DNA from: a virus
Taxonomy: Duplodnaviria > Caudoviricetes
Strand: one strand, 5' to 3'
IMG/VR virus record: IMGVR_UViG_3300037228_000056
Location: 1 to 63,344 of that record
Length of the DNA stretch: 63,344 bases
In this document: positions 4,312 through 54,142 of the stretch, piece after piece
How the letters are laid out: each line of letters starts with the position of its first letter
Numbering within the stretch: the first letter of the stretch is position 1
Notes under the pieces: generated by a model
What the model was told of the DNA's origin: nothing
Databases searched by the model: none
The model's input: only the letters and a program-made list of their open reading frames with translations
Made by a program: the position numbers and the translations under genes

Positions 4312-6284
4312 CAACTTTTCGCATCGCTGATCTATCGGAGACCGAGGGCAGCCCGCTAGCAAGGAGGCCGCGAATGCCCGCCCCCCGCAGCAAGCCCGAG
4401 CCGCACTGGTGGCGGCACGCGGCCGAGGTGACCCCGCTCGCCGCGCTGGCGCTGTTCGCCGCCGTGGCGCTGTCGCGCGCCTTCATGCTGCCGTGGTGGT
4501 GCGTCCCGGCAGGAGTCGCAGCGGCCGGCTTGTGCGCGCTGACGGCGGTCGCGGCGATCGCGGCCGAGCCCGTCGCGAACTGCTACGCCGCCGCGTGCTC
4601 GGCGATAGCGGCCGGGTGGGTCACCTACGCCTGCCTCACGTCGCCGTGGACGGTGCGGGCCGGGTTCGCGCTGGCCGTCCCGACCCTGATGGCCGGGATG
4701 CTGTACCCGGTCGTGGCCGGGCACCAGCGGCACCTGACCGAGAAGGCCAGGAAGGACGCGGAGGCGGCGCGGCGGGCGGCCGAGCAGCGCAAGTGGCCCG
4801 ACCTGCTGGCCAAGGCCGGGGCGCGCGGCGTGGCAGTCGTGGCGAACGAGGAGACGCGGGCGGGCCGGACGCTGCGGCTCGCCCTGCCCGCGAGCGGCCG
4901 GGTGACGTTCCGGAACCTTGAGCGGCTGGCCGACCGGCTGGAGACGGCGGGCAGGCTGCGCCACGGCGCGATCCGGTTCGAGCAGGGCGAGCACGCCGGG
5001 GAGGCCCTGATGCACGTCAGCGAGAAGGACATCCTGGCCCTGACCGTGCCCTACCCCGACGACCTGTCCGACCTGACCGTGAACAGGCCGTTCCGGGTCG
5101 GCACCTATGAGGACGGGTCGCTCGCGGACATCCTGTACCGCGAGATCAAGATCCTGATCGTGGGCCTGACCGGGGCCGGGAAGTCCAACACCCTCAACGT
5201 CCTGATCGCGCAGCTCGGCCGGTGCGTCGACACGGTCATCTTCATGATCGACCAGAAGGGCGGCCGGGCGGCGCTGCCCTGGATCCAGCCGTGGCTCCAG
5301 GGCCGCGCCCCGCGACCCGTCGTCGACTGGGTGGCCACCACCCGCGATGAGTCCGAGCGGATGCTGCGGGCGATCCTGCGCGGCATCGACGCCCGCGCCC
5401 ACTCCGGGGCCGGCGGCGAGAAGATCACCCCGTCTGCCGCGATGCCCGCCGTGGTGCTGATCATCGACGAGATGGCCGTGATCTTCGGCGCGCACGGGGG
5501 CCCGAGGATCGGCGCGGGCACCACCAACACCGCCCTCGCGGGCCTGGGCACGCAGATAGTCCAGCTAGGCCGGTCCGAGGCGATAGACGCCATCCTGGCC
5601 ACCCAGCGGGGCACCGTCACCATGACCGGCGGGGGCGACCTCAAGTCCCAGTGCCGGCTCAGGATCGGGCTGGGCGTCGCCAGCGAGGCGGACGCGCGGA
5701 TCATCATCCCCGACAACGCCTCCGTGGCCCGGCTGCTCCCGAAGCTGAAGCATCCGGGGACCGGCATCATCTCGCTGGGCGATGACGCGGTGAAGCCGCT
5801 GAAGTTCGACCGGCTGGAGAACGACCGGATCAGCGCGATAGCCGAGGAACTCGGCCACCGCCGCCCGGAGCCCGACGAGGTGCTCGCCGCCGCACTGGGC
5901 GACGACTACGCGCTGCGGTGGACCTCGGAGCGAGCGGGCCACATCCCCGGCTTCGCCCGCGCTGCGGTGCTCGCCGCCCCCGGCCGCGATGTCGACTGGG
6001 ACGGCGAGTTCGAGCGGCTGACGGCAGGCCAGTTCCCCGCCGCGCCCCAGCCCGAGCCAGAGCCGGACGGCAAGCCGCCTCACCCGGCGCGGGCGCGGAT
6101 GCTGGAGATCCTCCGCCAGCGCGGCGTGATGGGCGCGACCCCGGCGGACCTGCACAGGCGGCTCACCTCCGAGGGCCTGGCCGTGGCCAGGGAGACCGTG
6201 CAGCGCTGGCTCAAGGACGAGGAGAAGGCGGGCAACGTGAGGAACGCGACCTACGGCCGGTGGAAGGCGGTTCGCGGTGACTGA
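4308..6284 (+). CDS. traB: FtsK/SpoIIIE-family conjugal DNA translocase (TraB-like)
   Basis: N-terminal TMs, Walker A GLTGAGKS, IDQKGG, Walker B LIIDE, ATQR, C-terminal wHTH (RETVQRWL...GRW). Confidence 0.85.
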   Translation: MTTFRIADLSETEGSPLARRPRMPAPRSKPEPHWWRHAAEVTPLAALALFAAVALSRAFMLPWWCVPAGVAAAGLCALTAVAAIAAEPVANCYAAACSAIAAGWVTYACLTSPWTVRAGFALAVPTLMAGMLYPVVAGHQRHLTEKARKDAEAARRAAEQRKWPDLLAKAGARGVAVVANEETRAGRTLRLALPASGRVTFRNLERLADRLETAGRLRHGAIRFEQGEHAGEALMHVSEKDILALTVPYPDDLSDLTVNRPFRVGTYEDGSLADILYREIKILIVGLTGAGKSNTLNVLIAQLGRCVDTVIFMIDQKGGRAALPWIQPWLQGRAPRPVVDWVATTRDESERMLRAILRGIDARAHSGAGGEKITPSAAMPAVVLIIDEMAVIFGAHGGPRIGAGTTNTALAGLGTQIVQLGRSEAIDAILATQRGTVTMTGGGDLKSQCRLRIGLGVASEADARIIIPDNASVARLLPKLKHPGTGIISLGDDAVKPLKFDRLENDRISAIAEELGHRRPEPDEVLAAALGDDYALRWTSERAGHIPGFARAAVLAAPGRDVDWDGEFERLTAGQFPAAPQPEPEPDGKPPHPARARMLEILRQRGVMGATPADLHRRLTSEGLAVARETVQRWLKDEEKAGNVRNATYGRWKAVRGD

Positions 6285-10542: not shown

Positions 10543-11127
10543 ATGGCCACGGGAGCGCGCGGGGGCACCGGGCGCTTCCGGCGGACCGTGGAGTCCGCTG
10601 CGCGCGACATGCGCGCGGCGGAACTCCACGGCCAGGGCTGGACGCACCAGCGCATTGCCGACGAACTCGGATTCGCGCACCGCGGCAAGGCGACGGAGGC
10701 GATCCAGCGCGCGTTCGCGTCCATCCCCACCGAGGGCGCGGAGATGGCCAAGCGCATCGACCTCGAGCGCATCGACCAGCTGATCGAGAAGAACTGGGAA
10801 GTCCTGGAGCGCCAGCACGTCACGGTCAGCCAGGGCCGCGTGGTGCGACGGTTCACCGGTGTGGAACGGCACGCCGACGGCATCGAGAAGCTGGACGCCG
10901 ACGGCAAGCCCATCCCTGTCTTCGAGGACGTGCTGGACGACGGCGCGGTAGCCACCTCGAGCACCGTCATCCTGCGGCTGCTGAAGCGCCGCGCGGAAAT
11001 GTACGGGTACGACGAGCCGGTGCACACGCGGGTGGAGATCGTGCCGCCCGAGGTGATCGAGGCCAACATCGCGCGGCTGGAGCTGGAGCTTGCCGGCAAC
11101 GACCCCGCTCGTCCAGGCGCCGCTTGA
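10543..11127 (+). CDS. terS: Terminase small subunit
   Basis: HTH GWTHQRIADELG, C-terminal RRAEMYGYD; overlaps the start of terL. Confidence 0.75.
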   Translation: MATGARGGTGRFRRTVESAARDMRAAELHGQGWTHQRIADELGFAHRGKATEAIQRAFASIPTEGAEMAKRIDLERIDQLIEKNWEVLERQHVTVSQGRVVRRFTGVERHADGIEKLDADGKPIPVFEDVLDDGAVATSSTVILRLLKRRAEMYGYDEPVHTRVEIVPPEVIEANIARLELELAGNDPARPGAA

Positions 11128-15143: not shown

Positions 15144-15723
15144 CCGCGAGTCCACGCGCCGTCCTGCCACCAGTCGCCGCCGTGCTCGCGGCTCAGGTCG
15201 TTCGCCTCGGCGAAGGTCATCGCGAACTGGTGGTAGACCTCGCCTGGCCGGCCGGCAACGACGCGCGCGATCGTCTCGCGGGCGCTCTGCCGCGCTGAAT
15301 CCGCCGCCCGCTGCGCGTAGTAGTCCTCAAGCGCTTGCGGGCTGCCGTCCATGAGTATCCACGAGTCCGTGCCGGTGGAGAACACGGCGAGGTTGCCGTC
15401 TGGCTGCCTGATGATCTGATGGCCCACGGTTAGCCGATCACCGAGCGCCAGTCCACGTTTCTCGCGAGATCCTCGTAGTCGCGCCGGGCCTGAGTCGCGC
15501 GCTCGATCGCCTCGGCGACGGCAGCGCCGGTCATGCGCGCGCAGATCGCGTCCGTGATCCGTTCCGCAGTCGCCTGGTCGGCCATCTCGTCAACCACGTC
15601 CAGCAGGTCGCAGGTGTACCGGACCTGCTGACAGTAAAGCGCCTCGGTCATGAGCACTCGCCGGGCGTCGCCGTGACGGGACAGGTGCTCGCGCAGCCGG
15701 ATCGCTGATGACATCTCGGGCAT
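15140..15723 (-). CDS. Two antisense moron genes (15430-15723; 15140-15427)
   Basis: Leaderless -10 TACGCT 6 nt before ATG 15723. Confidence 0.6.
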
Positions 15724-15752
15724 GCGCCCAGCGTAGCCGGGAGGTGCCAGCG

Positions 15753-18378
15753 GTGCCCGATTCCCAGAACGCGAAAGTCCTCCAGTTCCCGGACCTCGCG
15801 CCGAAGGCCCGGCGCCAGCTCATGCAGCCCGAGCTCGGCACGCAGTACGACTCGATGGACCGCATGTTCGCCTACTGGGCGGACGGCTCAGTCCTGGACT
15901 ACGGTGAGTGGACCTCGCGGGACATGGAGACCATGCTCGTCCGCGACGGGCAGGCCGCGGCGATCGAGGCCGTGATCACGCTGCCGATCCGGCAGGCGGC
16001 GACGGCGATCGAGAAGGCGACCGGCGACAAGGGCGAGGCCGATTTCTGCCGCTCGGTGCTGATGACCCCGCACACCGGCGGCGGCATGGAGACGCCGCTG
16101 CAGGACGTGATCGGCCAGCTCACCTCGGCGCAAACGTTCAGGAAAGCCTTTTTTGAGAAAGTTTGGAACATCCGCGACTCGGACGGCAAGATCGTCTACG
16201 ACAAGCTCGCGTTCCGGCCCGCGTCCACCTGCGAGCAGAAGCGCAATGCCCGCACTGCCGCGCGAGAGGGGTTTGTGCAAAGGGACTGGCTTTTCGGCGC
16301 GGGCGCAATGGAAATCGGAAAGCCAAAGAGCAAGACGCCTGGCTACGTGGAAATCCCGCAGATCCGCTCGTGGGTTTACGTAAACGGGAAGCACAGGAAG
16401 CCGCTAACCGGAACGTCTGAATTGGATCTTTGTTACTGGGCATTGGCGTATAATTCAGAAGTGCAGACGCCAAACGGTCCCGTAGCGATCGAAGACCTGT
16501 ATCCAGGCGATTTCGTTTTCGGTTCCGACGGTGAGCCGACTGAGGTTCTCGACGTCCTCGACCGGGGCGTGCAACCGATGTACCGCATCCGCTTCGACGA
16601 CCAGACGAGCGTGCTCTGCTCTGCCGATCACCTGTGGACAGTTGCGGAACGCCGCACCAACGGCAACGCCTGGACCAAGACGGTCCCGACTTCCTACATG
16701 ATCAAGACGGGCCTGAGGCTGTACGACGGCTTCCGGTTCATGGTTCCGCTGTGCGGAGAGGTTCAGTACCCTGAGCGCGACCTGATCATCGACCCCTATG
16801 TAATGGGTGCGTATCTCGGTGACGGGGGCGTTCAGAGAACCCGGAACGGCATCAACACTCCCACCCACGGCATCCAGTCCCCGACCTTCACGTGCGATGA
16901 GGATGACGCCGAGATCATCACGGAGATTGAGCTGAGGCTCTCGCCAGGGATCGAACTGAGGCGTCACGATGCCCTGCACTACGGCGTGACCGACACTCTG
17001 AAGGTTAAGCAGAACCGCTTCCGCGATGCGCTGGTCACGCTCGGCGTTGCCGTGCGTTCGCCGGAGAAGTTCATCCCGCAGATCTACCTCACAGCGTCCT
17101 CGAAGCAGCGGTGGGATCTGCTGCGCGGCCTCATGGACACCGACGGCCACGCTAGGGAAAAGACGCGGTCGATGTTCACCAGCACATCAGAGCGTCTTGC
17201 GCGGGATGTTCAGCTCCTCGTTCAGTCGCTCGGCGGCCGGGCAACCGTAACGGGGCCGAAATGGAGCGACGGCGGCACCCTGGACGGCCATGTGATCACG
17301 CGGCGCCACGCCACGTGGATTGTCTTCATCACCACACCCGAGCCTGCTTTCCTGCTTAAGCGGAAGGCCGACAAGTGGGGAGGAGGTGGTTACGAGAGAA
17401 AGAACAACTTCAAGTCAGTTGTCAGCATCGAGCCTGAGGGCGAGAAGGAGTGCCGTTGCATAACGGTCGCGAACGAGGACGGCCTGTTCCTCGCTGACAA
17501 CTACACGGTCACGCACAACTGCTACCAGACCAAACTGAAGCTGGTCTTTCTTTTAGCGGCTCTGGCTGCAATTCTTGGAACAGCAATCATTGCCTAAAGT
17601 GATCATGTACGGCCAGGATCCGCGCGAGGCCAACGCCCACGCCGACGACCTGGCCTCGATGCGGGCCTCGGGCGTGATGGGCCTGCAGCGGCCACCGCAG
17701 GGCGCGAAGACGTTCGAGATCCTGGAAAGCTCCGGCAAGGGGGCCGACCAGTTCAGCGCAGCGCTGTCGTTCCTCGAGACGTGGCAGGTCTCATCCGTGC
17801 TCGCGGGCTTCACCGGCCTCGCGTCGCTGGCATCGCTCGGCCGCGGGTCGCTGGCGCTGTCTCAGGACCAGAGCGCGTTCTTCCTCAAGTCGCGCCAGGC
17901 CGTCACGCAGGAGATGGAGACCGCGATCACGCACGACGTGATCGCCCCGCTGGTGACCCTGAACTTCGGTCCCGGCGCGGCGTACCCGAGCTTCAAGTTC
18001 GGGGCGCTGACCGACGAGTCCGACACGGCGCTGGTGACCCTGTTCCAGGCGATGTCCGTAGCTCCCGCGCTGCAGGTGCCGAACGGCATCCTGGACATCA
18101 TCACGACCCGGCTGGCGACCTACCTCAACCTCGATGTCAGCGCGGTAGAGGCGATCATCCAGCAGGGCGCGAAGGACCGGGCCGCGCAGGCGCAGGCGAT
18201 CGCGCCGCCGGGAATGCCGCCGCAGGCAGCCGCCCAGCTCGGCGCGCTCGCCGGGGGCGTCAGCGCGGCGGACAGGATCGCGAAGGCTGCCATTGCCCAG
18301 TCGGACGCGCAGCCGCTGCCAGAGGACACGTCCCAGCCGTTCGACGTGCCGCAGATGGGACTTCAGCCGAAGGCGTAG
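15753..18378 (+). CDS. Portal protein (Mu gp29/DUF935-like) with class 3 intein and a 10-nt coding gap at 17553-17562
   Basis: GGAGGTG SD plus GTG 15753; restored junction TGTSELDLCYW/CYQTKLKLVFL/WLQFLEQQSLP; C-part GSLALSQ...IAPLVTLNFG...YPSFKF. Confidence 0.85.
16440..17519 (+). mobile_element. Class 3 intein with LAGLIDADG endonuclease (360 aa)
   Basis: Ala1 (ALAYNSEV); WCT signature (ADHLW, CRCITV, TVTHN|C); GAYLGDG and LRGLMDTDG motifs. Confidence 0.9.
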
Positions 18379-18389
18379 GGTACGGAACC

Positions 18390-19100
18390 ATGACCGAGCC
18401 GTACGACATAGCCGCGCAGATCAGGGCCAAGGTCGCCGAGGCGATCAGGGAGTGCGCGCCGGCCGAGACCTACGGTTACTCGCTGACTATGGGCGTGATG
18501 TCCGCCCCGAACGGCCAGGACACCGTCATCTGGGTCCTTCTGCTCACCTGCCGGTCACCGCTGCTCGGGCATCCCGACCTGGGCGCGACCGCGAAGTTCC
18601 CCGGCAACACGGTGAGCGACGCCGAGATCGCGCGGGCGGTGAACGGCCTCGTGGCGGCGCTGCGGGAGCAGTTCGCCACGGTGCTGCGGGAGGGCATGTC
18701 CGGCGGCAACGGCCACCTGCCGGCAGCGTTCGGGGGCAAGCCGTCGTAGACTGCGGGAATGAGCGAGCCCCGCTACGAGAACCGTGACATCGGCGGCATG
18801 GCGTTCCTGGCCTGCCTTGACTGCGGTGCCTTGATTGACGACCGGGACAGCCACACCCGGTTCCACTCGATCCTGGGCGGTCACGCTTGGACGCTGGCGG
18901 TGCTGAAGACCGCGCACGTCGCCGCTCACATCCACGACAAGTACGACACAACCGCGCGGATCGACAGCAAGCGGTTCGACTCATGGAGTGCCGGCGCGCT
19001 GGCTGAGGTGACTGGCGAAACGGTCAGCGCGGAATTCTGCGAGGACGCTGCCGCGCTGATGGACGCCAGTGACGAGCTGATGCGAAGACTGGCCGATTAG
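18390..19100 (+). CDS. Two hypothetical genes (18390-18749; 18759-19100)
   Basis: Coherent ORFs; second has TAGACT 6 nt upstream and CLDC...HTRFH. Confidence 0.55.
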
Positions 19101-19125
19101 CGTCCCCTTGCCGTGAGGTGACCTG

Positions 19126-19779
19126 GTGCCAGCTACAGCACAGGCACCCCCGAAACAGCAGCAGCCGAAGCAGCCACCTGCGCCCCCCGCCCTGGACGCG
19201 CTCATCGCGGCCGTCATCACCGCCCTCGCGGCGGCAGCGACCGTGGCGGGAGTCGTGGCCGTCCTCGGCGCGAGGATGCTGGCGATGGGCATCAGCCGCG
19301 CGGTGCTCGCAGCCGTGGCGTGGCTGGTGCTGTCGTGGCCTGCCGACGTGATGGAAGGCACCGGGCCCGCGACGAGGTGGGCAGTGCGCACCAACTCCTT
19401 GCGGCGCGCCCGGTTCTTCCTGGCCGCGTGCAAGCGGGTCCAGGCGGCCGTCACGGGAGCGCGGTCGCGCAACGAGCCGGTCATCGCGGCAATCCAGGCA
19501 GCCATCGCGGCAGAACGGCGCTACATGGGCCAGCAGATAGCCGCCGCCCACCAGCGGATAGCGGCAGCGACGGCGGTAGACGGCATGGCTGCGACGCACG
19601 GCAGCCTCCTCGGCTGGAACGCGGTCACCGACCCGCGCTGCACGCCGGAATGCAAGGCGGCTAACCGCAAGAACTTCAACGCGGAGAGGCCCCCCGCGAT
19701 CGGCTATCCGGGCACTACGCACCCGAACTGCCGGTGCTACCCGTCCAAGCCGTTCAAGGGCGCTCCGGTCCTGCTGTAG
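19126..19779 (+). CDS. MuF-like minor head (head morphogenesis) protein
   Basis: W.AVTDPRCTPEC...HPNCRC motif; follows the portal. Confidence 0.8.
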   Translation: MPATAQAPPKQQQPKQPPAPPALDALIAAVITALAAAATVAGVVAVLGARMLAMGISRAVLAAVAWLVLSWPADVMEGTGPATRWAVRTNSLRRARFFLAACKRVQAAVTGARSRNEPVIAAIQAAIAAERRYMGQQIAAAHQRIAAATAVDGMAATHGSLLGWNAVTDPRCTPECKAANRKNFNAERPPAIGYPGTTHPNCRCYPSKPFKGAPVLL

Positions 19780-19981
19780 CACGGCTGGCCCGAAAACGGT
19801 CCCAGAACTCCTGCTCGGTGATGGGCTGGTATGTGGCCGCGAACTTCAGCGGGTAATGCTCGGGATGGCCGCAGGCGCGCAACTCGCCGTCGGCCGGGAG
19901 CGCCATTCCCGAAGGCCGGTGCTCGGTGAAGTCGTGCCCGCAGGCCAGCGTCACCGCGTAGCGGGTGCTCTCGTCTGCCAT
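19754..19981 (-). CDS. Antisense moron, hypothetical
   Basis: TATGCT 7 nt before ATG 19981; LACGH/ACGH motifs. Confidence 0.55.
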   Translation of the reverse strand: MADESTRYAVTLACGHDFTEHRPSGMALPADGELRACGHPEHYPLKFAATYQPITEQEFWDRFRASRATAGPERP

Positions 19982-20011
19982 GCCGCTCAGCATAGGACCG
20001 GGCGGTGAGCC

Positions 20012-21445
20012 GTGGCCGTTCTGTCCGCCTCGCCGGTCACCGATCCGGTAGCCGCAGCCTGGTACGGCAAGTCAGCCGCGAGCCGCGCTCGCGCAGTCGA
20101 GCTGGCCAGCGCGCCGGGCCTGACATCACGATCGGGCATGATCTCGCTCGACCTGCCCGAAGGCACCATCAAGCCGGTACCCGGCGGACTGACTGACCAT
20201 CACGTCACGGTGGTCTACCTCGGGCACGACCTCGACGATGGCGCTTTCGCGCTGGCGTGCTCGCGAGCCAAGGATGCGGCAGCGTCGGCGGACGGCCCGC
20301 TGACCGGGACCGTGCAGGGCGCTGACTCGTTCACGCCGTCGGCTGGCAGCGACGGGAAGGTGCCCGCGTTCGCCCCGGCCGTCATCCCGGGCGCCCAGGC
20401 GCTGCGCTCGAAGCTCGATGACCTCTCGGCGAGCGAGCACAAGGACTGGATACCGCACGTCACGCTCGCCTACCTCGGCAAAGGTGACCCGCTGCCCGGT
20501 CCCGTGCCGCCGACTTCAGTGAAGTTCAGCCACCTGTCGGTGCATCGCGGTGATGACGTGAGGCGGTTCGCGCTCGGCTCGGGCAGCGAGCTAGCCGGGG
20601 ACGCACCCGCGATCGACCTGAGCGCGCTGACGCCCGTTTACTCCTCGACGCCGTCGCCGCTCGGCCGTCCCGGCGGACCGGGCCTGTGGTTCAAGGGCTG
20701 GAAGCTCCCCGATTACGTGGAAAATGTGGCGCGCGGCATCATGCAGGGCGGCCAGCCCGACGAGTCCATGGCCATCGCGACCGCCATCGCGGCGTGCAAG
20801 CGGTGGGCGACCGGAGCCGGCAACGTCACGCCAGAGGTCCGCGCGGCATCGGCCAAGGCGATCGCCGAGTGGGAGGCGCTGAAGGCAGCCGCCCCCGGCA
20901 CGCCGGGCCACGATCACGCGAGCGACGCTCCCGCCATCGACCTGGCGTTCATCGAGCAAGACCACCCGCGCGTCCCGGCAGGCCAGAAAGGCGGCGGCCA
21001 GTTCGGCAGCAAGGGCGGCGCGGAAGTCTCGAAGGCCCGTGCGCGGCACTCGGCCAAGGTACCCGCGGCCACGGTCCCGGCGACGGCTCAGGGTCAGATG
21101 ACCAGGGTCCAGCAGCTCCGTTTCCAGGCGGCCAGCGACCGGCAGCTAGCGCAGAAGATCATGGTCCAGATCGCGGGACTGGTGCGGGCACGGAACGCGG
21201 CCAGCGTCCAGGTCGCGGCGTCAGCGCCGTCCAAGGCGGGTGTCAGCGCCACCGCATCCACTGCGGCAGTGAAGGCGGCGTCGACGTACAAGGCGAGCCC
21301 GGCGAGCGCCACGGCCACGTCAGCGTCATCTGCGGCGAGGGCTAACGTGGCGAAGCTGGACGGCCAGATAAGGCTGCTCCGAGACGACGCGCGGGCGCTG
21401 ATCAAGTCGGCAGACCATCTCGACGCGGAGGCGGACGGCCAGTGA
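20012..21445 (+). CDS. Multidomain head-region protein with 2H phosphoesterase (Acb1/2'-5' ligase-like) domain
   Basis: HVTVVYLG ... PHVTLAYL paired HxT motifs; HPRVPAG..GGGQF motif; repeated DAPAIDL linkers. Confidence 0.75.
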   Translation: MAVLSASPVTDPVAAAWYGKSAASRARAVELASAPGLTSRSGMISLDLPEGTIKPVPGGLTDHHVTVVYLGHDLDDGAFALACSRAKDAAASADGPLTGTVQGADSFTPSAGSDGKVPAFAPAVIPGAQALRSKLDDLSASEHKDWIPHVTLAYLGKGDPLPGPVPPTSVKFSHLSVHRGDDVRRFALGSGSELAGDAPAIDLSALTPVYSSTPSPLGRPGGPGLWFKGWKLPDYVENVARGIMQGGQPDESMAIATAIAACKRWATGAGNVTPEVRAASAKAIAEWEALKAAAPGTPGHDHASDAPAIDLAFIEQDHPRVPAGQKGGGQFGSKGGAEVSKARARHSAKVPAATVPATAQGQMTRVQQLRFQAASDRQLAQKIMVQIAGLVRARNAASVQVAASAPSKAGVSATASTAAVKAASTYKASPASATATSASSAARANVAKLDGQIRLLRDDARALIKSADHLDAEADGQ

Positions 21446-22284
21446 CCATGAAGACCCCGGCACCCGAGACGGCGGCAGGGCGCAGGAAGCTCGCGGCCAG
21501 CGGCGACGCCCTGAAAGACGGCACTGACCCGATCCCCGACGTCCCGTACCTCAAGAAGGCCATCCGCTCGATAGGCCGCGTCGACCCGTCCAAGCGCCCG
21601 GCGGTCAAGGCGCTGATCCGCAAGCGGGCCACGGAGCTAGGCGCGCTGAACGAGCCGGGCGTGAGGGGCACGTGGGCATTCCAGGGCGCGAACTCAGGCG
21701 AGGCGGTTGACTTGGCGAACGGCGGCAGGATGCCCGTGATTCGCGGCGCGGCCGACATCCAGATGGGGCGCACGGCACCAGGCGTGATCAGCGTCATGCA
21801 CAAGTCGTCGGGCATGAAGGTCGGCACGATCACGCCGAAGGGCGCCGGCTGGCAGGCGACCGGCGCCGACGGCACGAAGGCCCCGGCGTCCGGTTCGCAG
21901 CAGGGCGCGCTGGCCGGGCTGATCGCCTGGCACAACAAGATGGCGGCGGCGAGGAACGCGAAGGCCCGCGATGCCGCCGCGGCTCCCGCATCGGGGATCG
22001 CTTCGGTGCAGGGCTACGCGGGCGAGCAGGCGGCGCTGGAGTTCGCGGGCTCAGTGCCGGCGAACTCGGCCTCGGATGGCCCCCGCGTGGCCACGATGAG
22101 CGGCAGCGGGAGCGCGTCACCTGCCGCTTCCGCAGCCGGCTCGAAGCTCGGGCTGACGCCCGAGGGCGCGGTGGTGTACGCGAAGCTGATCAGGAAGGGC
22201 CTCAAGCCGAACGTGGCGCTGGCGTTCGCGAAGAGGGCAGCGGCGATGCACGCGAAGTCAGCGACCGCCAAGGCTGCCGCTTAG
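21442..22284 (+). CDS. Head-associated protein (DUF6582-like N-terminus)
   Basis: GDALKDGTDPIPD...KAIRSIGR...IRKRATELG. Confidence 0.6.
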   Translation: MTMKTPAPETAAGRRKLAASGDALKDGTDPIPDVPYLKKAIRSIGRVDPSKRPAVKALIRKRATELGALNEPGVRGTWAFQGANSGEAVDLANGGRMPVIRGAADIQMGRTAPGVISVMHKSSGMKVGTITPKGAGWQATGADGTKAPASGSQQGALAGLIAWHNKMAAARNAKARDAAAAPASGIASVQGYAGEQAALEFAGSVPANSASDGPRVATMSGSGSASPAASAAGSKLGLTPEGAVVYAKLIRKGLKPNVALAFAKRAAAMHAKSATAKAAA

Positions 22285-22998
22285 CCCCGCCAGCGCGCGG
22301 AGGCCTTGGCCTGGTCGCTGCACAGCGCCTCGAGCATGGCCTCGGCGGAGGGCGGATCGGCGACGGAGCCGACGAGCACGGTGTGGCTGAACATCGCCAC
22401 GTGCCTGAACCTGTAGCGCACCGGTTCGGGATACTTCCAGCCGGTGATAGTCAGCGCGTCAACCGGTTCAGGTTCGGGTGCCGACTGCCACCACATGCCG
22501 TTGCTGCACGTGAAAGCGTCAACGGGAATGTCGGCGCGGCCTTTCAGCGGCCCGTCGATGAAGACCGGCAGGTTACTCACCCGATCACCTCTCCCTGAAC
22601 CACGTCAGGCGTCCGCTCGACCGCCACGGTGACCTCCGCCAGCGCCAGCCTCGCCGACGACTGGCTGCCGAACGGGATGCGGATCACGAGCCTGCCGCCT
22701 TCGCGGCTGATTTCCTCGCCGCCGTACGGGCGCTCGAAGCCGATGGCCAGGTGCCAGCCGCTCACGCGGTGAGCCCGAGCTCGCGCGGCCGGTGCTCCTC
22801 GCACGGCCAGCCGCTGAACCGGCACCTGAAGCACTCGGCGAGGTCGATCGCCTTCAGCTCGGCCATCCGCTCGCCGTCAGCGCGCGACGGGTCGCGGTAG
22901 ACGTACGGCCGGAACAACTCGGCCGGGCGCAGCGCGAAGGCCGACCCCATCAGCTCCGCGATCTCGGCCGCGCCGATGAACTGCCGCGCGTGGTCCAT
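22281..22998 (-). CDS. Antisense cluster of small hypothetical genes (22762-22998, ~22577-22765, 22281-22580)
   Basis: GTGA-coupled ORFs; GAGAAT 6 nt before ATG 22998. Confidence 0.5.
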
Positions 22999-23245
22999 GC
23001 CCGCATTCTCTCAGAAGCCGGACGGAGGCGATGCCGGTGAGCGCGCAGATCATCACCGCCCTGCGGATCCGGGCCGAAGCCCTGGACGCCGAAGCCCTGG
23101 ACGCCGAAGCCGACCGGATCGAGGTCGTGACCTCAGGGGCGTCCGAGTTGCCGGTGACCCCGCAGCAGCCACACGCCCGCAATGTTCACTCGCTGCGGCT
23201 GATGGCGGGCGAGTTCCGCGCCCTGGCTGACCAGGCGGAGGCACG

Positions 23246-24535
23246 ATGACCACCACGCTCCTCACGCCGCTTGAGTTCGGCGCATCGCGGCCGTTCGGCG
23301 CGACCATGTGGCGCAAGCAACTGCTGCCCGTGGGGGAGATCAACTACGAGGGCCGCAAGATCGCGTTCACCCGCGAGTACCTCGCCGGGCTCGTGAAGGC
23401 GTTCGCCGACAAGGCATACGACGCCGTGCCGTTCCAGTTCGCCGACCGGGATAACAAGCACACCAACAAGCCAGAGGACCGGCGCGGCACGGTGCGCAGC
23501 CTTGAACTGACCGATGACGGCCTGGACATCATCGTGGAGGCCGGCGCTGCAGCGTCAGAGCACCTGGCCGAGTATCCCGACCTCGGCGTCTCCGCGTCCA
23601 TCGCGGAGGACTACGCCCGCGCTGACGGCAAGTTCTTCCCGGCCGCCATCCGCCACGTCCTGGGCACGCTCGACCCGCGCATTACCGGGCTGAGGCCATG
23701 GCAGGCCGTCGATGCATCGAACCCGGCCGGTCCCGGCAGCCTGTGGCAGGGCATCGACTTCGCCGGCAACTCGGGCGACGTCATCGACCTGACCGACGCC
23801 GAGTACGGCGCCACCGAACCCGCGAAGCCCGCAGGCAGGCACGCGAGGCCCTCAGGCCCGCCCGCACCCGATCCGACAGCCCCGGTCGCTCCCACAACGG
23901 AGGAAACGCCAATGGCCCTCACCGAAGCGCAGGAGGCCCGCCTGGCCAAGCTGCTGGACCTCCCCGACGACAAGTTCGACGCCCTCCTCGCCGACGCGCC
24001 GCAGCCGGGCGAGGAGGAACTGCTGACCGACGCCGAGCTCGCGGCGCTGCTCGCCGAGATCGAGGCCGGCGAGGAGGCGCCCGCGGCGGAACCCGCTGGC
24101 GAGCCCGCGGCGGCCGGCGCCGCGCTGTCCGCCGAGGCGCAGGCCGCGATTGACCTCGCCAACTCACGTGCCGAGGAGCAGGGCATCGAGCTGGCCCGCA
24201 TCACCCAGGCGCTGGACAAGGCCACCTACGAGCGCGAGCGCGAGCAGCTCGCCCGCGTGCACGGCATCCCGCCGCGCATCACCGACGTGGCCCGCGATCT
24301 GCTGGAGGGCACCGGCCGCAGCGTCGAGCTGGCGAACGGCAGGACGGCCGACGCCGGGGCGATCGTGCGCAAGCTGCTCGCCGAGGTCGGCAAGACGGTC
24401 AAGATGCTCGACCTGTCCGCCGAGATGGGCACCCCGCTCGACGGGGGCGCGCAGGAGGCGGCCGAGGCCGAGGCGCAGGCCGTGCAGGACCGCGCCGACC
24501 TGATCGGCGCGTACCGGCAGATGGCCGGCATCTGA
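23246..24535 (+). CDS. Capsid maturation protease / scaffold fusion (Mu gpI-like)
   Basis: WRKQLLPVG, NKH, GVSASI, HVLGTLDPRITGL; acidic helical C-terminus; located before the capsid genes. Confidence 0.8.
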   Translation: MTTTLLTPLEFGASRPFGATMWRKQLLPVGEINYEGRKIAFTREYLAGLVKAFADKAYDAVPFQFADRDNKHTNKPEDRRGTVRSLELTDDGLDIIVEAGAAASEHLAEYPDLGVSASIAEDYARADGKFFPAAIRHVLGTLDPRITGLRPWQAVDASNPAGPGSLWQGIDFAGNSGDVIDLTDAEYGATEPAKPAGRHARPSGPPAPDPTAPVAPTTEETPMALTEAQEARLAKLLDLPDDKFDALLADAPQPGEEELLTDAELAALLAEIEAGEEAPAAEPAGEPAAAGAALSAEAQAAIDLANSRAEEQGIELARITQALDKATYEREREQLARVHGIPPRITDVARDLLEGTGRSVELANGRTADAGAIVRKLLAEVGKTVKMLDLSAEMGTPLDGGAQEAAEAEAQAVQDRADLIGAYRQMAGI

Positions 24536-24539
24536 CCGG

Positions 24540-24839
24540 GTGGCCGGCAACGTCACGGTCTACATCTCCATCGGCAACAGCGACGACAGGCTCACGCAGG
24601 CCCAGTGGTCGGACTTTGTCGCGGAGGCGCGCGACGAGGTGCGCCAGCACGCGGCCGAGGTTCACGGCGACTGGCTCTCGGCGTCCGACTCGCGTTACCA
24701 GAACGCCTGCTGGTGCGCCGTCATCCCGGCTGACGGCGTGGCCGAGGCGAGCCTGCGTCGGCGGATGGCCGCACTGCGCAAGCGTTTCGGCCAGGACTCC
24801 GCTGCCTGGGCGGTCGCGCCCGGCACGGAGTTCATCTGA
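24540..24839 (+). CDS. Hypothetical protein
   Basis: VYISIGNSDDRLTQAQW; coherent ORF. Confidence 0.6.
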   Translation: MAGNVTVYISIGNSDDRLTQAQWSDFVAEARDEVRQHAAEVHGDWLSASDSRYQNACWCAVIPADGVAEASLRRRMAALRKRFGQDSAAWAVAPGTEFI

Positions 24840-24924
24840 CGAGCCGTCACCCCCGCCAGCCCTAATCCCGCACGTCCCGCCCTGCGGCGGGTCTCCATGC
24901 CTACCGCAAGGACGGTGAGTCTCA

Positions 24925-25383
24925 GTGAGCGGTGCCCTTCCGCACAGCAAGCAGGGTCCGGACAACTTCCAGGTCTCCGCGCTCGTGCTCGGCGGCCAGC
25001 TCGTCGTTCCCGACGCCAGCCCGGCCACGACGGTGTCGGTCGCCGGCGCGGGCGCGGTCAACGTGCTCGGCGTGGCCGGCAACGACGCGTCCCCGCAGGT
25101 GAGCCAGGCGGCGTTCACCGACCCGAACGCCGGCGGCCAGCCCCTGATCGACATCTCGGTGCTGCCGGACTACACCGCCGTGCACCGGCTGCCGACCGAC
25201 ATCCACGTCACCTACGCGGCCACGGCCACGTTCGGGCAATTGCTCAAGGCGGCGGCGGCCGGCCAGGTCACGCCGTGGGTCTCGGGCACCGACACGAACG
25301 CAGCCCTGATCGTCGGCAAGTGCACGCAGCCCGGCGGCGTCGTGGCCGCCCCCGCGATCGGGCGCATGCGCGTCCTCACCTGA
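24925..25383 (+). CDS. Capsid decoration/cement protein
   Basis: Ala/Gly/Val beta-rich (VLGVA, GQLLKAAAAGQV); directly upstream of the MCP. Confidence 0.7.
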   Translation: MSGALPHSKQGPDNFQVSALVLGGQLVVPDASPATTVSVAGAGAVNVLGVAGNDASPQVSQAAFTDPNAGGQPLIDISVLPDYTAVHRLPTDIHVTYAATATFGQLLKAAAAGQVTPWVSGTDTNAALIVGKCTQPGGVVAAPAIGRMRVLT

Positions 25384-25484
25384 CCATCCCGGCCGTCACG
25401 CGGCCCCCCTGAGCCATCAGCGGCACCGGCCGCCCGACTGACGGGGCTTCTCCCCGCCTGCCCTCGCAGAGGAGCTGAAACCTC

Positions 25485-26396
25485 GTGCCAGTCCCTTCCT
25501 ACACCAGCATGGACGGCCCCCGGATCACCGTCGATGCCCTGCTCAAGGATCCCCTGGTCATCCCGGCGCTGATCCTGGACATGGTCCAGAACGAGTTCAT
25601 CGTGGATGCCGTGCTGCGGCAGGCCGGCCTGGCCCAGTCCGGCGCGGTCCGGTACAGCGAGTCGACGCCGCTGTACGCCGACGACACCCCGGAGATCCGC
25701 GCCGAGTTCGGCGAGGTGCCGGTCGTGCCGACCAGCGTCGGCATGCCGCGGGTGGTCTTCACCCACGAGCGCGCCATGGCCATCAGCGTCAGCGACGAGA
25801 TGCGGCGCCGGATGGTCGTCGACCCGGTGACCAGGCAACTGCAGCAGGTCAAGAACACGATGGTGTACTCGTGGAACACCGCCTTCTACTCGGCGGTGAT
25901 CGCGAACGCGAACGTCCAGACCCTAGCCGTCGGCAACCCGTGGGCCTCGTCCAACGCGACGATCCGCGCGGACATCGCCAACGGCGTGTACCTGGTCGAG
26001 AACGCGTCGGTTACCTCGGCGATCGGCTTCAACTCGTTCCTCGGGTTCGAGGCCGACACGATGATCATCAACCACGGGACCAAGAACACCCTGCTCCAGT
26101 CGAGCAGCTTCGCGGCGCCCTACATCGGCGACATCGCCAGCGAGAACCTCCAGTACACGGGCGTCCTGCCGAACAAGATCTTCAACCTGGACGTGATGGT
26201 CTCGCGCCAGGTGCCCCCGGGCAACGCGATCATCATGCAGCGGCAGCGGTGCGGCTTCATCGCCGACGAGCTGCCGTTCCAGGCGGGCCCGCTCTACCGG
26301 TGGGAACCTACCAAGTCCATGCGCAGCGACACGCAACGGGCGTCTGCCATCGGGTTGGACCAGCCCCTGTCAATCGTCGTGGTTTCGGGCGTTTAG
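25485..26396 (+). CDS. Major capsid protein
   Basis: 303 aa; AEFGEVP, ISVSDEM, LDQP motifs; GAGGAG SD; synteny. Confidence 0.85.
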   Translation: MPVPSYTSMDGPRITVDALLKDPLVIPALILDMVQNEFIVDAVLRQAGLAQSGAVRYSESTPLYADDTPEIRAEFGEVPVVPTSVGMPRVVFTHERAMAISVSDEMRRRMVVDPVTRQLQQVKNTMVYSWNTAFYSAVIANANVQTLAVGNPWASSNATIRADIANGVYLVENASVTSAIGFNSFLGFEADTMIINHGTKNTLLQSSSFAAPYIGDIASENLQYTGVLPNKIFNLDVMVSRQVPPGNAIIMQRQRCGFIADELPFQAGPLYRWEPTKSMRSDTQRASAIGLDQPLSIVVVSGV

Positions 26397-26453
26397 CCGC
26401 CAGTCCCGTCCGTCGCCGCCCGATCTGACCCGCGCCACGAAGGAGCACCCCCC

Positions 26454-26864
26454 ATGGCCTTTGCCAAGACCTCGGAGTACGAGGCCCTCACGAACCTCAG
26501 CGTCGGCCGCGGGCCGTCCGACAAGGACAAGGCCGCGGACATCGTGCACAAGGGCGAGACGGTGCACCTGACCGACGAGCAGGCCCGCGGCTTCCTGGAC
26601 CCGAAGCGGCACCGCGTCCCGGTGATCCGCCCGGCCAGCGAGCAGAACGACCCGGCGCCGGCCATCAGGGCGCGCGACCTGTTCGGCACGCAGCCCAGGG
26701 CGCAGCAGTTCGGCGCCAGGCCCGACCCGCCCGGCTCGTCGAGGGTGCAGGAGGTCGTCTCATGCGGTGCCCCCGCGGACCCTGCCGACCCGATGTCCGC
26801 GCCCGAGGCGAACGACCCGGTCGTCGACCTGGCGGTGGATCCGGACGCGGCAGGCGACAGGTAG
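26454..26864 (+). CDS. Hypothetical virion-associated protein
   Basis: AAGGAG SD; GETVHLTDEQA motif; follows the MCP. Confidence 0.6.
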   Translation: MAFAKTSEYEALTNLSVGRGPSDKDKAADIVHKGETVHLTDEQARGFLDPKRHRVPVIRPASEQNDPAPAIRARDLFGTQPRAQQFGARPDPPGSSRVQEVVSCGAPADPADPMSAPEANDPVVDLAVDPDAAGDR

Positions 26865-27536
26865 GCGGCAGGCATGGCGGAAGGGCTCGGCCGCGGTGGC
26901 TTCCTGCCGCATGGGCAGCCGCTGGTCGTCAACGCGGCGGACGAGCCCGTAGCCGTCGCAGAGCCTGTCACTGACGAGTACGTGTGCCAGTTCTGCCAGC
27001 GCGACCAGCACGGAAGATGCCGCGCGACCGCCTGCACGTGCTGCGAGGGGTCGCCGTGAGCCTGCACCGATGGCTTGAGCGCCGCGCCGAGAGGCGAGAT
27101 GAACGCGAGCGCAGCCGGCAGGAGCGCAGCTACGTCGGCAGCAGGACGCCCGGCGTGCGCGTGTTCCCTGAGGTCGGCCTGCCGGAAGGTTTCGAGCCGC
27201 CGTCGGCGTCGCTTGCGCCAGCACACCGTGAGGGCTCGCCTTGACCGCTGAGCGGCTGATCCGCATCGTGGTGGCCGCGGTCATCGTCGCGCTGGTCGCG
27301 GCAGCCGTGATCGTGCTGTTCGCGGGCTGAGCGGTGAGCGGGACCGGCGGACGTGACCTGAGCGAGTGCCTGGACAAGTTCGGCAACATCGCCGTGGACG
27401 TGGTGATCGGCCATGGTCCCGGCGCGGGGAAGCGGGAGACGGGCGCGTCCGCGAAGCCTGCCGTCGTGGCGCGGTTCCTGCGCGACCTGGCCGGCGACGT
27501 CCAGCGCCTGAGCGCGGCAGCGGACGGGAGGCGCCA

Positions 27537-28052
27537 GTGACGACGCCGGTTGCCTACTGCCAGCCCTCCGACATCAGGAACAACGTGGCCGGGACGGACA
27601 ACGGCACCGGAACCTGCGCTCAGCTCACCGATGAGCAGCTGAGCGCGTCCATAGCCCAGGCGAGCGCCAAGGTGTCCGCCTACGTCGGGACGTCATGGTT
27701 CACCGACGCGAACGACCCGGTGATCGTGATCCCCGACCTGATATTCAACCTGGCCGTTCAGATCGGCACGTTCTACGCCACGCTGACCTACCGGAAGGGA
27801 AAGGACCTCAGCGCCTTCGACCCGGTCTACCTCGGGTGGATGGACGCGATGGCGACGCTCAAGGACATCGTCAACGGCAACATAGAGGTCGTGCCCACGC
27901 CGCCGTCCGATCCGACGGACCGGGGCGGCTACGTCAGGAACACGCTGCCGTCGGTCTTCACCTACGAGGACAGCGGAGTGCGGCCGAACGGGCGCGGCGG
28001 CATCGAGGCGGCAGGCGGTCCGGGGTCGCTGCTGAACGACGGCTGGCGGTAA
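27537..28052 (+). CDS. Head-tail adaptor (Mu gp36/DUF1320-like)
   Basis: AYCQPSDI...ASAKVSAY...AMATLKDIVNG. Confidence 0.75.
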   Translation: MTTPVAYCQPSDIRNNVAGTDNGTGTCAQLTDEQLSASIAQASAKVSAYVGTSWFTDANDPVIVIPDLIFNLAVQIGTFYATLTYRKGKDLSAFDPVYLGWMDAMATLKDIVNGNIEVVPTPPSDPTDRGGYVRNTLPSVFTYEDSGVRPNGRGGIEAAGGPGSLLNDGWR

Positions 28053-28254
28053 AGAGGGGATCAGGGGATGGTGCCTCAGGACTCAAGGTCTCCGGCCTTC
28101 GCGGCCCGGTCCGCTGATCAAGCTTCCCGCGCCGTGCGGTTCCGGCGGCTTCCGGGCCCGAACAGGCCGGTGAACGCCGCCTCGACACGGGTAGCCTCAG
28201 TCACGGTCACGCGCTGATCGTACTGGCGCCCCGAACTGCTCGGAGGAGGTGGTC

Positions 28255-28757
28255 ATGGGCACCTTCGCTGAGCGAACGCAAGAGCTGGAGGATCTGGTCG
28301 GGCACGGCGACCTAACTGGCACAGTCGTGGTTGACCAGGTCTTAAAGGGTCTACGCGCAATATCAGCACGAAGGTCTTTTAGCTAGACTTCCGGCATCCT
28401 CGCGGCGGTCAGGCGCTGTTCCTGCAAGAGCCGCTCATGGACAACTTCGGCGGCTACCTGGAGAAGATCGCGGCGATCATCCTCGACGGCGGCGCGGACG
28501 ATGCGATGGCCGAGGCGATGGAAGATCTCGCCGAGGACGGCGGCGTGGCCACGCACGCCCCGGTGCTCTACGCCAACCTGCGCGCCAGCGGGCATCCCAT
28601 CGTGACCAGCGACGGAGCGACGGTCTACGATCGCGAGCCGCGCCAGCACCGGCTCACCGAGGAAGAACTGAAGGCGATCTACCGCGAGCACCACCCGATC
28701 CCGTCGGAGCATTCAGGGCGGGAACTGAGGTTCCTCTGGGGTCACGACATCGAGTAG
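28255..28757 (+). CDS. Neck/minor virion protein (HK97 gp10-like) interrupted by two coding gaps (10 nt and 7 nt)
   Basis: GGAGGAGG SD plus ATG 28255; skipping 28342-28351 and 28379-28385 gives DQVYAQYQHEGLDFRHPRGGQALFLQEP and joins ORF 28437-28757. Confidence 0.75.
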
Positions 28758-28991: not shown

Positions 28992-29405
28992 ATGCCGCTG
29001 CCGACCACGGACATTTTGGCCTGGATCGAATCGCTCGGCTGGAACAGCGCGCAGGAGATCGGCGCGCCCATCGTGATGGGGCCGTACATCCTGAAGGTGC
29101 CGGACAAGCTCGTCACGGTCACGCCCACGCCAGGACCTGGATTCGTCTACGAAGCGGCGGCGGACGCCAACGCGTTCCAGGCCCGCGTTCGCGGAGGGCA
29201 GAACGACCAGCCGGGCGCGGAAGCGCTCGCTTACCAGCTCGACTCGCTCATCCTCGGCGCGCAGTTCCCGGCCGTGAGCGCCTCGGGAATGACCATCGTC
29301 CACATTCATCGCCTCGGCGGCACGCCATCGCCGCTCGCGCCCAATCCCGACGACGCAGAGCGCTACGAGTACACCTGCCAGTACCTGGTCATAGCCGGAA
29401 CTTAG
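28992..29405 (+). CDS. Tail terminator-like protein
   Basis: FQARVRG...ALAYQLD...RYEYTCQY. Confidence 0.75.
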   Translation: MPLPTTDILAWIESLGWNSAQEIGAPIVMGPYILKVPDKLVTVTPTPGPGFVYEAAADANAFQARVRGGQNDQPGAEALAYQLDSLILGAQFPAVSASGMTIVHIHRLGGTPSPLAPNPDDAERYEYTCQYLVIAGT

Positions 29406-54042: not shown

Positions 54043-54112
54043 GGGACCAAGCGTAGCGGCCTCAACTCAGGCGAAACCAGGCCGCAACCAGGGCGCAACA
54101 AGGTTCCGCGAA

Positions 54113-54140
54113 ATACAGGATAATGCACGTTATGCTGTGA
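54113..54140. other. dif-like 11-6-11 recombination site
   Basis: ATACAGGATAA TGCACG TTATGCTGTGA; inner 9 bp of the arms match 8/9 as an inverted repeat. Confidence 0.65.
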
Positions 54141-54142
54141 CC

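Follow-up and report, generated by a model that had tools for sequence, protein, structure and literature searches.

Candidate UUA-led translational bypass sites in the portal gene and a second virion-module gene of an uncultured soil actinophage

Portal gene, intein and second virion-module gene

The window analysed here is a whole 63-kb contig (63,344 nucleotides) of a high-GC temperate actinophage from soil, which is uncultured and whose sequence occurs in peat and permafrost. The phage encodes an integrase and so may sit as a prophage. No phage tRNA genes were found in the window, and no DNA-level match to it was obtained among 50,697 phage records. Distant relatives occur in MAGs labelled Mycobacterium, Actinospica, Streptosporangiaceae and Kineosporiaceae, labels which are weak as host evidence. 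Two genes are interrupted by short blocks, the portal gene once (gap 1) and a second gene of the virion module twice (gaps 2 and 3), and their features are given in Table 1.

Table 1. Features of the interrupted portal gene and second virion-module gene (positions in the window)
Feature	Position	Strand	Description	Basis
Portal N-terminal extein	15708..16439	+	244 codons, ends CYW	Pfam Portal_Mu profile 5-152, E 6.1e-7
Portal intein	16440..17519	+	360 codons, starts Ala, ends His-Asn, Cys next	LAGLIDADG_3, E 2.5e-8
Portal C-extein, start	17520..17552	+	first 11 codons, last is take-off CTT (17550-17552)	colinear with junction motif of 12 relatives
Gap 1	17553..17562	+	10 nt: in-frame TTA, 4 nt, landing CTC (17560-17562)	extra 10 nt relative to relatives
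Portal C-extein, remainder	17563..18378	+	+1 frame relative to upstream part	Pfam Portal_Mu profile 160-319, E 8.2e-16
Second gene, start	28255..28341	+	first 29 codons, last is take-off GTC (28339-28341)	tblastn, Marky gp19 residues 3-30
Gap 2	28342..28351	+	10 nt: in-frame TTA, 4 nt, landing GTC (exact match)	
Second gene, middle	28352..28378	+	nine codons YAQYQHEGL of invariant motif, last is take-off CTT	tblastn, second frame
Gap 3	28379..28385	+	7 nt: in-frame TTA, one further nt, landing CTA (synonymous, same first two bases)	
Second gene, remainder	28386..28757	+	123 codons and stop, begins D-F-R-H-P-R-G-G	tblastn

Both halves of the portal matched Portal_Mu (PF06074), at 29.5 and 58.7 bits against a cut-off of 23.9 bits. 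The N-terminal extein was also matched by residues 16-217 of the portal of Streptomyces phage Marky (tblastn) and aligns with 12 related loci. The intein, which besides its LAGLIDADG_3 domain gave a Hint_2 match below the cut-off (E 6.3e-5), is absent from all 12 related portals, where its flanks are joined directly. The break lies 11 codons past the C-terminal junction of this 360-residue intein, a feature absent from the preliminary description. By third-position GC the coding frame changes at about 17540-17600, frame 0 giving way to frame 1, and the remainder of the C-extein has a GC3 of 0.83-0.95 in the +1 frame and 46-86% identity to 13 related loci. Once gap 1 is left out, 11 codons separate the two conserved W residues of the portal, a spacing shared by all 12 related portals.

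The second gene follows a Shine-Dalgarno-like run (GGAGGAGG) and stands between the gene of a Mu gp36-like adaptor (27537-28052) and one that resembles a tail terminator (28992-29405). Marky gp19 matched it by tblastn in three successive frames (28258-28341, then 28346 to about 28378, then 28383 onward), and the pieces become exactly colinear with gp19 once blocks of 10 nt and 7 nt are passed over. Residues Y31, A32, Q35 and H36 are invariant in the alignment of this gene (A1). The preliminary description had named two structural genes, portal and neck; the portal stands by its Portal_Mu match, whereas the neck, or head-tail connector, role is suggested by gene order as its one basis, and the gene is presumed to be essential. 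In Pfam it matched no family, and in PHROG it reached phrog_556 'minor head protein' at only E 3.2e-4 with no stretch passing. The AlphaFold model of its product (pLDDT 77.7) retrieved no known family or fold in the fold searches (best PDB Foldseek E 0.44, best VIA Z 4.8), its only BFVD match being an unnamed 148-residue protein with 40% identity. No second copy of either gene was detected in the window by tblastn.

The three inserts lie, from take-off to landing codon, at 17550-17562, 28339-28351 and 28376-28385, where each string occurs once in the window and 0 of 100 shuffles gave a match. The grammar ascribed to them, a take-off codon, an in-frame TTA and a matching landing triplet, holds at all three sites. 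Removal of the gaps restores the frame and the invariant motifs, as had been claimed, leaving both proteins colinear with their gapless homologues (Marky gp19 and the 12 related portals). At two of the three sites (CTT to CTC and CTT to CTA) the landing triplet is not identical to the take-off codon. The inserts are also present in independent assemblies: sequencing runs from two samples and two studies gave Logan contigs with 0 differences over the sites and no listed indel at a depth of 12-36, although such contigs drop rare variants and a gapless minor population is possible.

Gaps and TTA usage in related phages

The comparison of the second gene covered 87 unique relatives, of which 17 are gapped; their gaps number 21 in all, with lengths of 4, 6, 7, 8, 10, 11 and 13 nt. 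The leading codon is an in-frame TTA in 19 of these gaps and an in-frame AGA in two, and a scripted search returned a motif-restoring solution headed by TTA or AGA in every one of the 17 gapped relatives. The gaps occupy six positions, all inside the most conserved motif of the gene. Their lengths span both non-zero frame classes and yet the same motif is always restored, which a single fixed frameshift cannot explain. For all 16 unique gaps of at least 7 nt the landing triplet equals the take-off codon at two or more of three bases (five exactly), as compared to 0-6 of 16 when the landing was shifted by -3 to +6 as a control. The take-off and landing codons covary as pairs (ATT/ATT, GTC/GTC, and CAG/CGG versus CAA/CGA).

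Portal gaps were also found in the relatives L029 and L031 (7 nt and 4 nt, both TTA-led), and gaps of like kind occur in unrelated samples. Across 1.03 Mb from related loci, the TTA-led gaps with good support were all in the portal and second genes, and none was found in major capsid or tail genes. Turnover is rapid between close relatives, for example L026 and L029, and the six gap positions need at least eight changes on the tree. By eye, and with no control, a GG pair was seen inside all seven 10-nt gaps (six neck, one portal) and inside both gaps of phage phiHau3.

The phage group avoids TTA. The ORFs of the window and 84 loci hold 44 TTA among 283,194 codons, many of the 44 being artefacts, and 70 intact second-gene hot spots contain no in-phase TTA against 16 out of phase. 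The near absence of TTA noted earlier for the two genes was borne out: the rough ORF list of the window has four in-frame TTA, one of them the portal site, and both neck-gene TTA are missing from the list because the gene pieces are too short for it. The other three comprise one at 2938, ahead of the likely start (2947), the point at which coding GC3 sets in, one at codon 11 of a minus-strand ORF, and one in a minus-strand ORF (1184-2080) overlapped by a better plus-strand ORF.

Candidate hopping mechanism and known systems

The three inserts are probably hungry-codon programmed translational bypass sites of the phiHau3 type, and we infer that ribosomes hop over them in vivo. Once the take-off codon (CTT, GTC or CTT) has been decoded, the very rare UUA would enter the A site, and with charged tRNA-Leu(UAA) arriving slowly the peptidyl-tRNA would unpair and the mRNA slide by 10, 10 or 7 nt. 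The same tRNA would then re-pair at the landing CTC, GTC or CTA and decoding would restart at the next codon, giving full-length portal (after intein splicing) and a full-length virion-module protein of 160 residues. Normal decoding of the UUA at gaps 1 and 2 would end 14 codons on (TAA at 17595 and TAG at 28384) and leave a portal-intein product cut short or a peptide of 43 residues, and at gap 3 the frame is open for 133 codons, out of register with the conserved protein. As UUA decoding would truncate and the hop would give full length, the yield of both proteins would be set by the slowness of UUA reading. With two hops required in the second gene and one in the portal, the net yield could be very low.

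Smith et al. (2013) reportedly worked on the phiHau3 terminase gaps, as cited by Antonov et al. (2023, PMC10732093). The precedent named in the preliminary description is real: the phiHau3 record has two gaps of 10 nt each, in one of which GGC lands on GGT and in the other TCT on TCC, and PMC10732093 describes large-terminase genes with UUA-led gaps from phiHau3 and the prophages StrepC.1 and S. catenulae, three gapped terminases among 100 surveyed. Its sections 3.5 and 3.6 report a junction peptide detected by mass spectrometry in E. coli, where UAA stood in for UUA, and a full-length product in Streptomyces; its authors hold that their data support bypassing and are no proof. The window sites are like those of phiHau3 in having UUA right after the take-off codon, a 10- or 7-nt block, a matching landing and flanks that are adjacent in gapless homologues, and in lying in highly conserved motifs of a virion or packaging-module gene, which may hold more than one gap. 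The early end of standard UUA decoding at gaps 1 and 2 is also shared. Unlike in phiHau3, where the terminase is the carrier, the carriers here are a portal of the Mu type and a virion-module gene that has no name, both from an unrelated, uncultured phage lineage, and the relatives of the window show a wider repertoire (4, 6, 8, 11 and 13 nt, AGA-led gaps, and six positions in one hot spot). The stimulators proposed for phiHau3 are an mRNA stem-loop and an internal Shine-Dalgarno-like sequence; RNA folds predicted around the window sites did not outperform shuffles (z -0.58 to +1.20) and so give no sign of a stimulatory stem-loop.

Bypassing in T4 gene 60, as outlined in PMC10732093, likewise has matching take-off and landing codons, a slow A-site signal and one protein from two discontinuous frames. 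The skip in T4 is 50 nt long, the A site is occupied by a stop codon, and a stem-loop at take-off and a signal in the nascent peptide take part. The window gaps were rejected as elements of this type, being 7-10 nt long with a sense UUA in the A site and no significant stem-loop predicted. In E. coli, hungry codons reportedly give rise to hops and frameshifts (references 47-52 in PMC10732093), among them low-level bypassing at slow or unassigned codons and an in-frame two-codon hop; the latter is resembled by an in-frame 6-nt TTA-led insert in the second gene of relative L027. These hungry-codon hops and the candidate hops here have in common a starved A-site codon and a peptidyl-tRNA that re-pairs a few nt downstream; however, the former are error-level or recombinant-expression events, whereas the gaps here belong to natural genes, in which they are fixed, recur and are under selection. 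Another actinophage case is the overlap of primase gp50/gp51 in mycobacteriophage Bxb1, where a rare UUA also lies at the junction of two ORFs and expression as a single protein is supposed (PMC12646305, available portion). That is a replication gene, and the same portion of PMC12646305 describes neither a mechanism nor a take-off and landing grammar.

Alternative explanations and possible purpose of the gaps

Programmed +1 or -1 frameshifting near the UUA, in which the UUA would be decoded or the tRNA would slip by one base and the gap nucleotides be translated into one to four extra residues per site, is improbable. Each window gap does amount to a +1 frame change, hungry codons are classic triggers of frameshifting, and from 17557, 28346 and 28383 on the new frames are open, making a shift a few codons past the TTA formally possible; at the 4-nt gaps of L029 and L037 a +1 slip would cost one added residue, and +1 events in Streptomyces were not excludable by the phiHau3 authors (PMC10732093). 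A +1 slip at the TTA, however, runs immediately into a stop at all three window sites (TAG at gaps 1 and 3, TAA at gap 2), the sites lack a slippery heptamer, and the added residues would land inside invariant motifs. Frameshifting would also leave unexplained the landing match in 16 of 16 gaps and the restoration of the motif by gaps of 7, 8, 10, 11 and 13 nt.

Decay of a prophage or a defective variant, with the portal and second gene as pseudogenes, is very improbable. The integrase makes a prophage conceivable, and TTA-less damage does exist in relatives (a portal deletion with frame change in L039 and a 44-nt difference in L074). Against this, every break is headed by an in-phase rare codon in genes otherwise free of stops and shifts. 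Further, dN/dS downstream of the gaps is like that of intact genes, 0.12-0.38 in nine gap-bearing pairs versus 0.16-0.28 in two intact pairs, and for the window's second gene after gap 3 it is 0.26-0.29 against other gap-bearing relatives. By these ratios purifying selection acts on what lies downstream of the gaps, which is indirect support for a trans-frame product free of gap-encoded residues. Together with the recurrence of gaps on the tree and the identical sequence in two samples, the comparative data argue for selected recoding over decay. An equally slight chance attaches to the inserts being removed before translation by a tiny RNA excision or editing, or being an assembly or sequencing artefact. 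The artefact is ruled out because the independent Logan contigs of two studies agree and like gaps occur in unrelated samples. RNA-level removal is left some room by the fact that no RNA runs containing the phage were found, but the TTA is strictly in phase with the upstream frame, which points to the ribosome and not to an RNA enzyme. We know of no RNA process that removes blocks of 4-13 nt.

As to purpose, the gaps may couple virion production to the state of the host or may throttle low-copy virion proteins, and both fit the data equally well. In the former case, as the preliminary description proposed, full-length portal and neck proteins would appear solely under scarcity of tRNA-Leu(UAA), the hops acting as an AND gate on a bldA-like host state. 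It is somewhat doubtful that the same hop serves as a constitutive attenuator for low-copy virion proteins and not as a sensor of host development. The proteins concerned (portal, connector-region protein and the phiHau3 terminase) are low-copy, TTA-led gaps are confined to the portal and second gene, their fast turnover would suit a tunable knob, and neither host nor habitat offers a tie to a Streptomyces-type life cycle. On the other side, the choice of TTA over other slow codons suggests tRNA sensing, UUA being read by the bldA tRNA that is developmentally regulated in Streptomyces (PMC10732093), and the temperate nature of the phage makes a lysis-lysogeny input plausible.

Bypass at UUA of the phiHau3 type is known but little studied, and the window sites would add a portal and a virion-module gene to its carriers. 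We tentatively entertain a wider proposal, in which UUA hopping, and sometimes AGA hopping, would be common and fast-evolving among uncultured actinophages of soil that form a large clade, with micro-gaps of 4-13 nt arising, moving and vanishing in a 12-codon hot spot of one virion gene and in the portal, the landing tracking the take-off even in pairings that would call for a middle-position G-U wobble, and serial hops tying assembly to tRNA-Leu(UAA). If true, the serial hops would constitute a translational sensor for a lysis-lysogeny or timing decision.

TTA-led gaps in the portal and second genes

The inserts interrupting the portal gene and the second gene, which lies between the head-tail adaptor and tail terminator genes, were confirmed and are far beyond chance. 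The three strings claimed in the preliminary description were each found once, where it had placed them, and all three gaps open with a TTA that keeps the phase of the upstream frame, with take-off/landing pairs GTC/GTC, CTT/CTC and CTT/CTA and with the base after TTA forming a +1 frame stop (TAG or TAA) in 3/3. The product of the Streptomyces phage homologue, Marky gp19, aligned with the second gene through three successive frames and became exactly colinear once both gaps were skipped, so that the claimed restoration of the frame held, as did the claimed near-absence of TTA, with an ORF count turning up no other convincing case of TTA read in frame by genes of the window, the three gap sites aside. 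The second gene had been called 'neck' and 'essential', both of which we infer from gene order and conservation. Its family or fold could not be assigned from searches of Pfam, PHROGs, the ESM Atlas and VIA (wide search), or from a Foldseek comparison of the AlphaFold model of its protein with PDB and BFVD, none of which yielded a usable match.

In the portal, third-position GC moved the coding frame from 0 to 1 at about 17540-17600, and the two parts matched successive halves of the Pfam Portal_Mu profile (positions 5-152, then 160-319). The gene also harbors an intein whose first residue is Ala, not Cys, and which ends in His-Asn followed by Cys; the TTA gap lies just 11 codons 3' of its C-terminal junction. 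With the intein removed, two conserved tryptophans are separated by 11 codons as in 12/12 related portals, all of them without intein and without portal gap, and this spacing was obtained only when the 10 nt of the gap were skipped. Local GC dips to 45% (17520-17610) and 50% (28330-28395) were seen against 67-71% elsewhere in the same genes, and AT-rich codons at the portal junction also occur in related gapless portals.

Separately assembled Logan contigs from permafrost and peat samples of two studies showed 0 differences across the gap sites, with no insertion or deletion listed and a word depth of about 12-36, a check on assembled contigs that is blind to rare gapless variants and in which one sample may be the window's own source. 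One Logan contig of run X2, at 66,712 letters, exceeds the window in length and might contain it. No RNA runs containing the window's DNA were listed, and no second copy of the portal or second gene was found within the window.

Features of the window and their coordinates
Feature	Coordinates	Length	Evidence
FtsK/SpoIIIE-like protein	4308-6284		E 9.3e-48
Large terminase	11090-13933		
Opposite-strand ORF in terminase insert	12332-13495	387 codons	helix-turn-helix, invertase and HNH-like PHROG matches
In-frame terminase insert	about 12400-13499	~1.1 kb	weak Intein_splicing match
Intein in portal	16440-17519	360 codons	LAGLIDADG_3, E 2.5e-8; weak Hint match
Portal gap	17553-17562	10 nt	
Head-module protein	20012-21445	477 codons	2'-5' RNA ligase superfamily, weak match under the cut-off (E 2.6e-5)
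Major capsid protein	25485-26396		PHROG 1650, E 1.4e-68
Second gene	28255-28757		
Second-gene gap	28342-28351	10 nt	
Second-gene gap	28379-28385	7 nt	
Tyrosine integrase	53873-55132		PHROG 1, E 4.8e-30

The phage and its gap-bearing relatives

The window is a single contig of 63,344 bp with ~70% GC and constitutes the entire record for the genome. Apart from the tabulated products, it encodes a Mu-type portal, a Mu F-like protein, a Mu gp36-like head-tail adaptor and tail-terminator-like, minor tail and endolysin-like proteins, and no tRNA genes were found in it. As an integrase and an FtsK/SpoIIIE-like protein are both present, the element is taken as temperate, a tailed phage or a prophage whose host is probably a high-GC actinobacterium. 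The terminase insert was recognised by comparison with the Marky terminase. Megablast of 15 kb of the window against 50,697 phage records returned no nucleotide match, and cultured relatives were distant and detected at the protein level only (12 and 10 records), the nearest being the Marky group of Streptomyces phages, whose proteins are 35-46% identical. A single annotated CDS lay beneath the second-gene match in 10/10 cultured phage records, and therefore no gap-bearing cultured example was found.

Uncultured relatives were collected with the capsid protein as query (178 related viral contigs, 80 kept, plus 4 contigs of actinobacterial MAGs) and with A1, an alignment of intact second-gene copies, which added 310 viral matches (80 of them kept) and 26 metagenome contigs. 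The gap-prone conserved motif of the second gene, hereafter the hot spot, was compared in 87 unique sequences, comprising 86 from this census and locus L031, added since it ends inside the gene; 70/87 were uninterrupted and 17/87 interrupted. A script seeking one or two blocks headed by in-phase TTA or AGA, whose removal restores the invariant motif, found a solution in 17/17 interrupted sequences, giving 21 gaps of 4, 6, 7, 8, 10, 11 or 13 nt positioned after codons 29, 30, 31, 35, 36 and 39. The lead codon was TTA in 19 and AGA in 2, the latter being in-phase gaps of 13 and 11 nt after codon 30 in loci L022 and L091, with take-off GTA and landing GTC, from which a second rare codon may act as hop trigger. 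In another locus (L027), a 6-nt in-frame TTA-led insert after codon 36 separates two invariant residues, and it would either add Leu-Pro when read or be hopped without frame change.

In the portals of L029 and L031, TTA heads one gap each (7 and 4 nt long, respectively), located elsewhere than the window's portal gap. All 3 genomes with portal gaps (these two and the window) have second-gene gaps too, and the second gene is gapless in L034, L039 and L055, which cover both genes and in which the N part and junction of the portal are uninterrupted; the numbers are small on both sides. A homology-based frame-break scan of 1.03 Mb with 1,122 ORF queries was noisy, most of its 116 clusters marking gene boundaries or antisense ORFs and being backed by 1-3 queries, and breaks on the plus strand with 4 or more supporting queries were retained; the window's own portal gap had one supporting query. 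The retained breaks were only the TTA/AGA sites of the portal and second genes plus a 44-nt difference changing the frame without TTA in L074 (about 2773-2798). Besides, the L039 portal has a TTA-less deletion of about 30 codons that changes the frame (about 2150-2160). These two are ordinary damage or assembly faults, and ordinary damage is the exception in this phage group.

Translational bypassing and its alternatives

The preliminary description had set its proposal against random indels of the kind seen in a decaying prophage; among the relatives, TTA-less breaks were rare and the retained breaks were nearly all TTA/AGA-led. Nei-Gojobori dN/dS over the 95 codons 3' of the gaps, aligned gap-free, was 0.12-0.38 for 9 pairs of gap-bearing genes, 0.12-0.21 inside a clade whose four members are all gapped, and 0.16 and 0.28 for two intact-gene pairs, values that speak for gapped genes still in use. 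On a tree of 86 sequences, based on only 102 columns and with many forks open, the gapped state requires at least 8 changes, 4 of them forced by well-supported branches; 13/16 gapped rows sit in a single subclade of 20, and close sisters differ in gap position. The gaps fall among the invariant residues Q29, Y31, A32, Q35 and H36 of A1, with the invariant H43-G47 just downstream, and it appears unlikely that this motif would tolerate extra residues. Transposon footprints or target-site duplications would explain the flanking repeats but leave unexplained why TTA is always in the upstream phase, and one fixed frameshift would not account for gaps of 4/7/10/13 nt and of 8/11 nt restoring the same motif.

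The features of the gaps themselves point to the ribosome. TTA accounts for 44/283,194 codons in ORFs of 100 codons or more in the phage group, many of them antisense or pre-start, and in the 70 intact hot spots it occurs 0 times in phase and 16 times out of phase. The landing triplet matches the take-off codon in 2-3 bases in 16/16 unique gaps of at least 7 nt, exactly in 5, while control triplets taken at offsets of -3 to +6 nt do so in just 0-6 of 16. Take-off and landing codons covary (ATT with ATT, GTC with GTC, GTT with GTT or GTG), and so do CAG with CGG or CAG and CAA with CGA; the pairs CAG/CGG and CAA/CGA would be compatible with a tRNA-Gln that re-pairs through a G-U contact at its middle position. 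No stimulatory RNA structure better than shuffles was predicted in five folds around the sites (z -0.58 to +1.20). We consider phiHau3-type hungry-codon translational bypassing, proposed here from the DNA, to be the likeliest mechanism and a probable one, with scarcity of the tRNA in the host as an assumption.

Precedents and implications

The precedent of Streptomyces phage phiHau3 named in the preliminary description proved real, both in its paper (PMC10732093) and in the phage record, where two 10-nt blocks each begin with an in-frame TTA and have the take-off/landing pairs GGC/GGT and TCT/TCC, a gap grammar equal to that of the window. As described in that source, the phiHau3 terminase contains two 10-nt UUA-led blocks, StrepC.1 and S. 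catenulae prophages contain single ones (7 nt being given for S. catenulae), and these 3 were the only cases reported there among 100 terminase genes surveyed (PMC10732093). The same paper describes a full-length product of the phiHau3 gene in Streptomyces and, for expression in E. coli of a version in which UAA stands in for UUA, a junction peptide seen by mass spectrometry; its authors regard these data as supporting bypassing, short of proof, and call UUA-triggered bypassing 'largely overlooked', its base so far being three terminase genes (PMC10732093). A UUA in the Bxb1 primase gp50/gp51 overlap is noted as a possible bypass in another report (PNAS; PMC12646305). For portal or connector-region genes, no description of such gaps turned up in a full-text literature search.

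The portal and second genes are thus two gene families new to UUA-led gaps, represented by 17 unique second-gene alleles that bear gaps and by 3 gapped portals. The high value of the case lies in its relatives, which amount to a natural mutational series for a mechanism already known but hardly explored; the variety they show in gap length, gap position and take-off/landing pair is the comparative evidence missing from the phiHau3 case, and it opens the rules on hopping tRNAs, hop distance and tolerated mismatches to testing. It also serves as a warning for annotation that a portal or connector gene marked as 'frameshifted' in a high-GC phage contig may be intact. As for their purpose, the gaps could equally do no more than attenuate low-copy virion proteins, being found only in genes for such proteins, or they could sense tRNA-Leu(UAA), as proposed for phiHau3. 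If tRNA sensing is true, the gaps would be a compact means for a temperate phage to read the physiology of its host.
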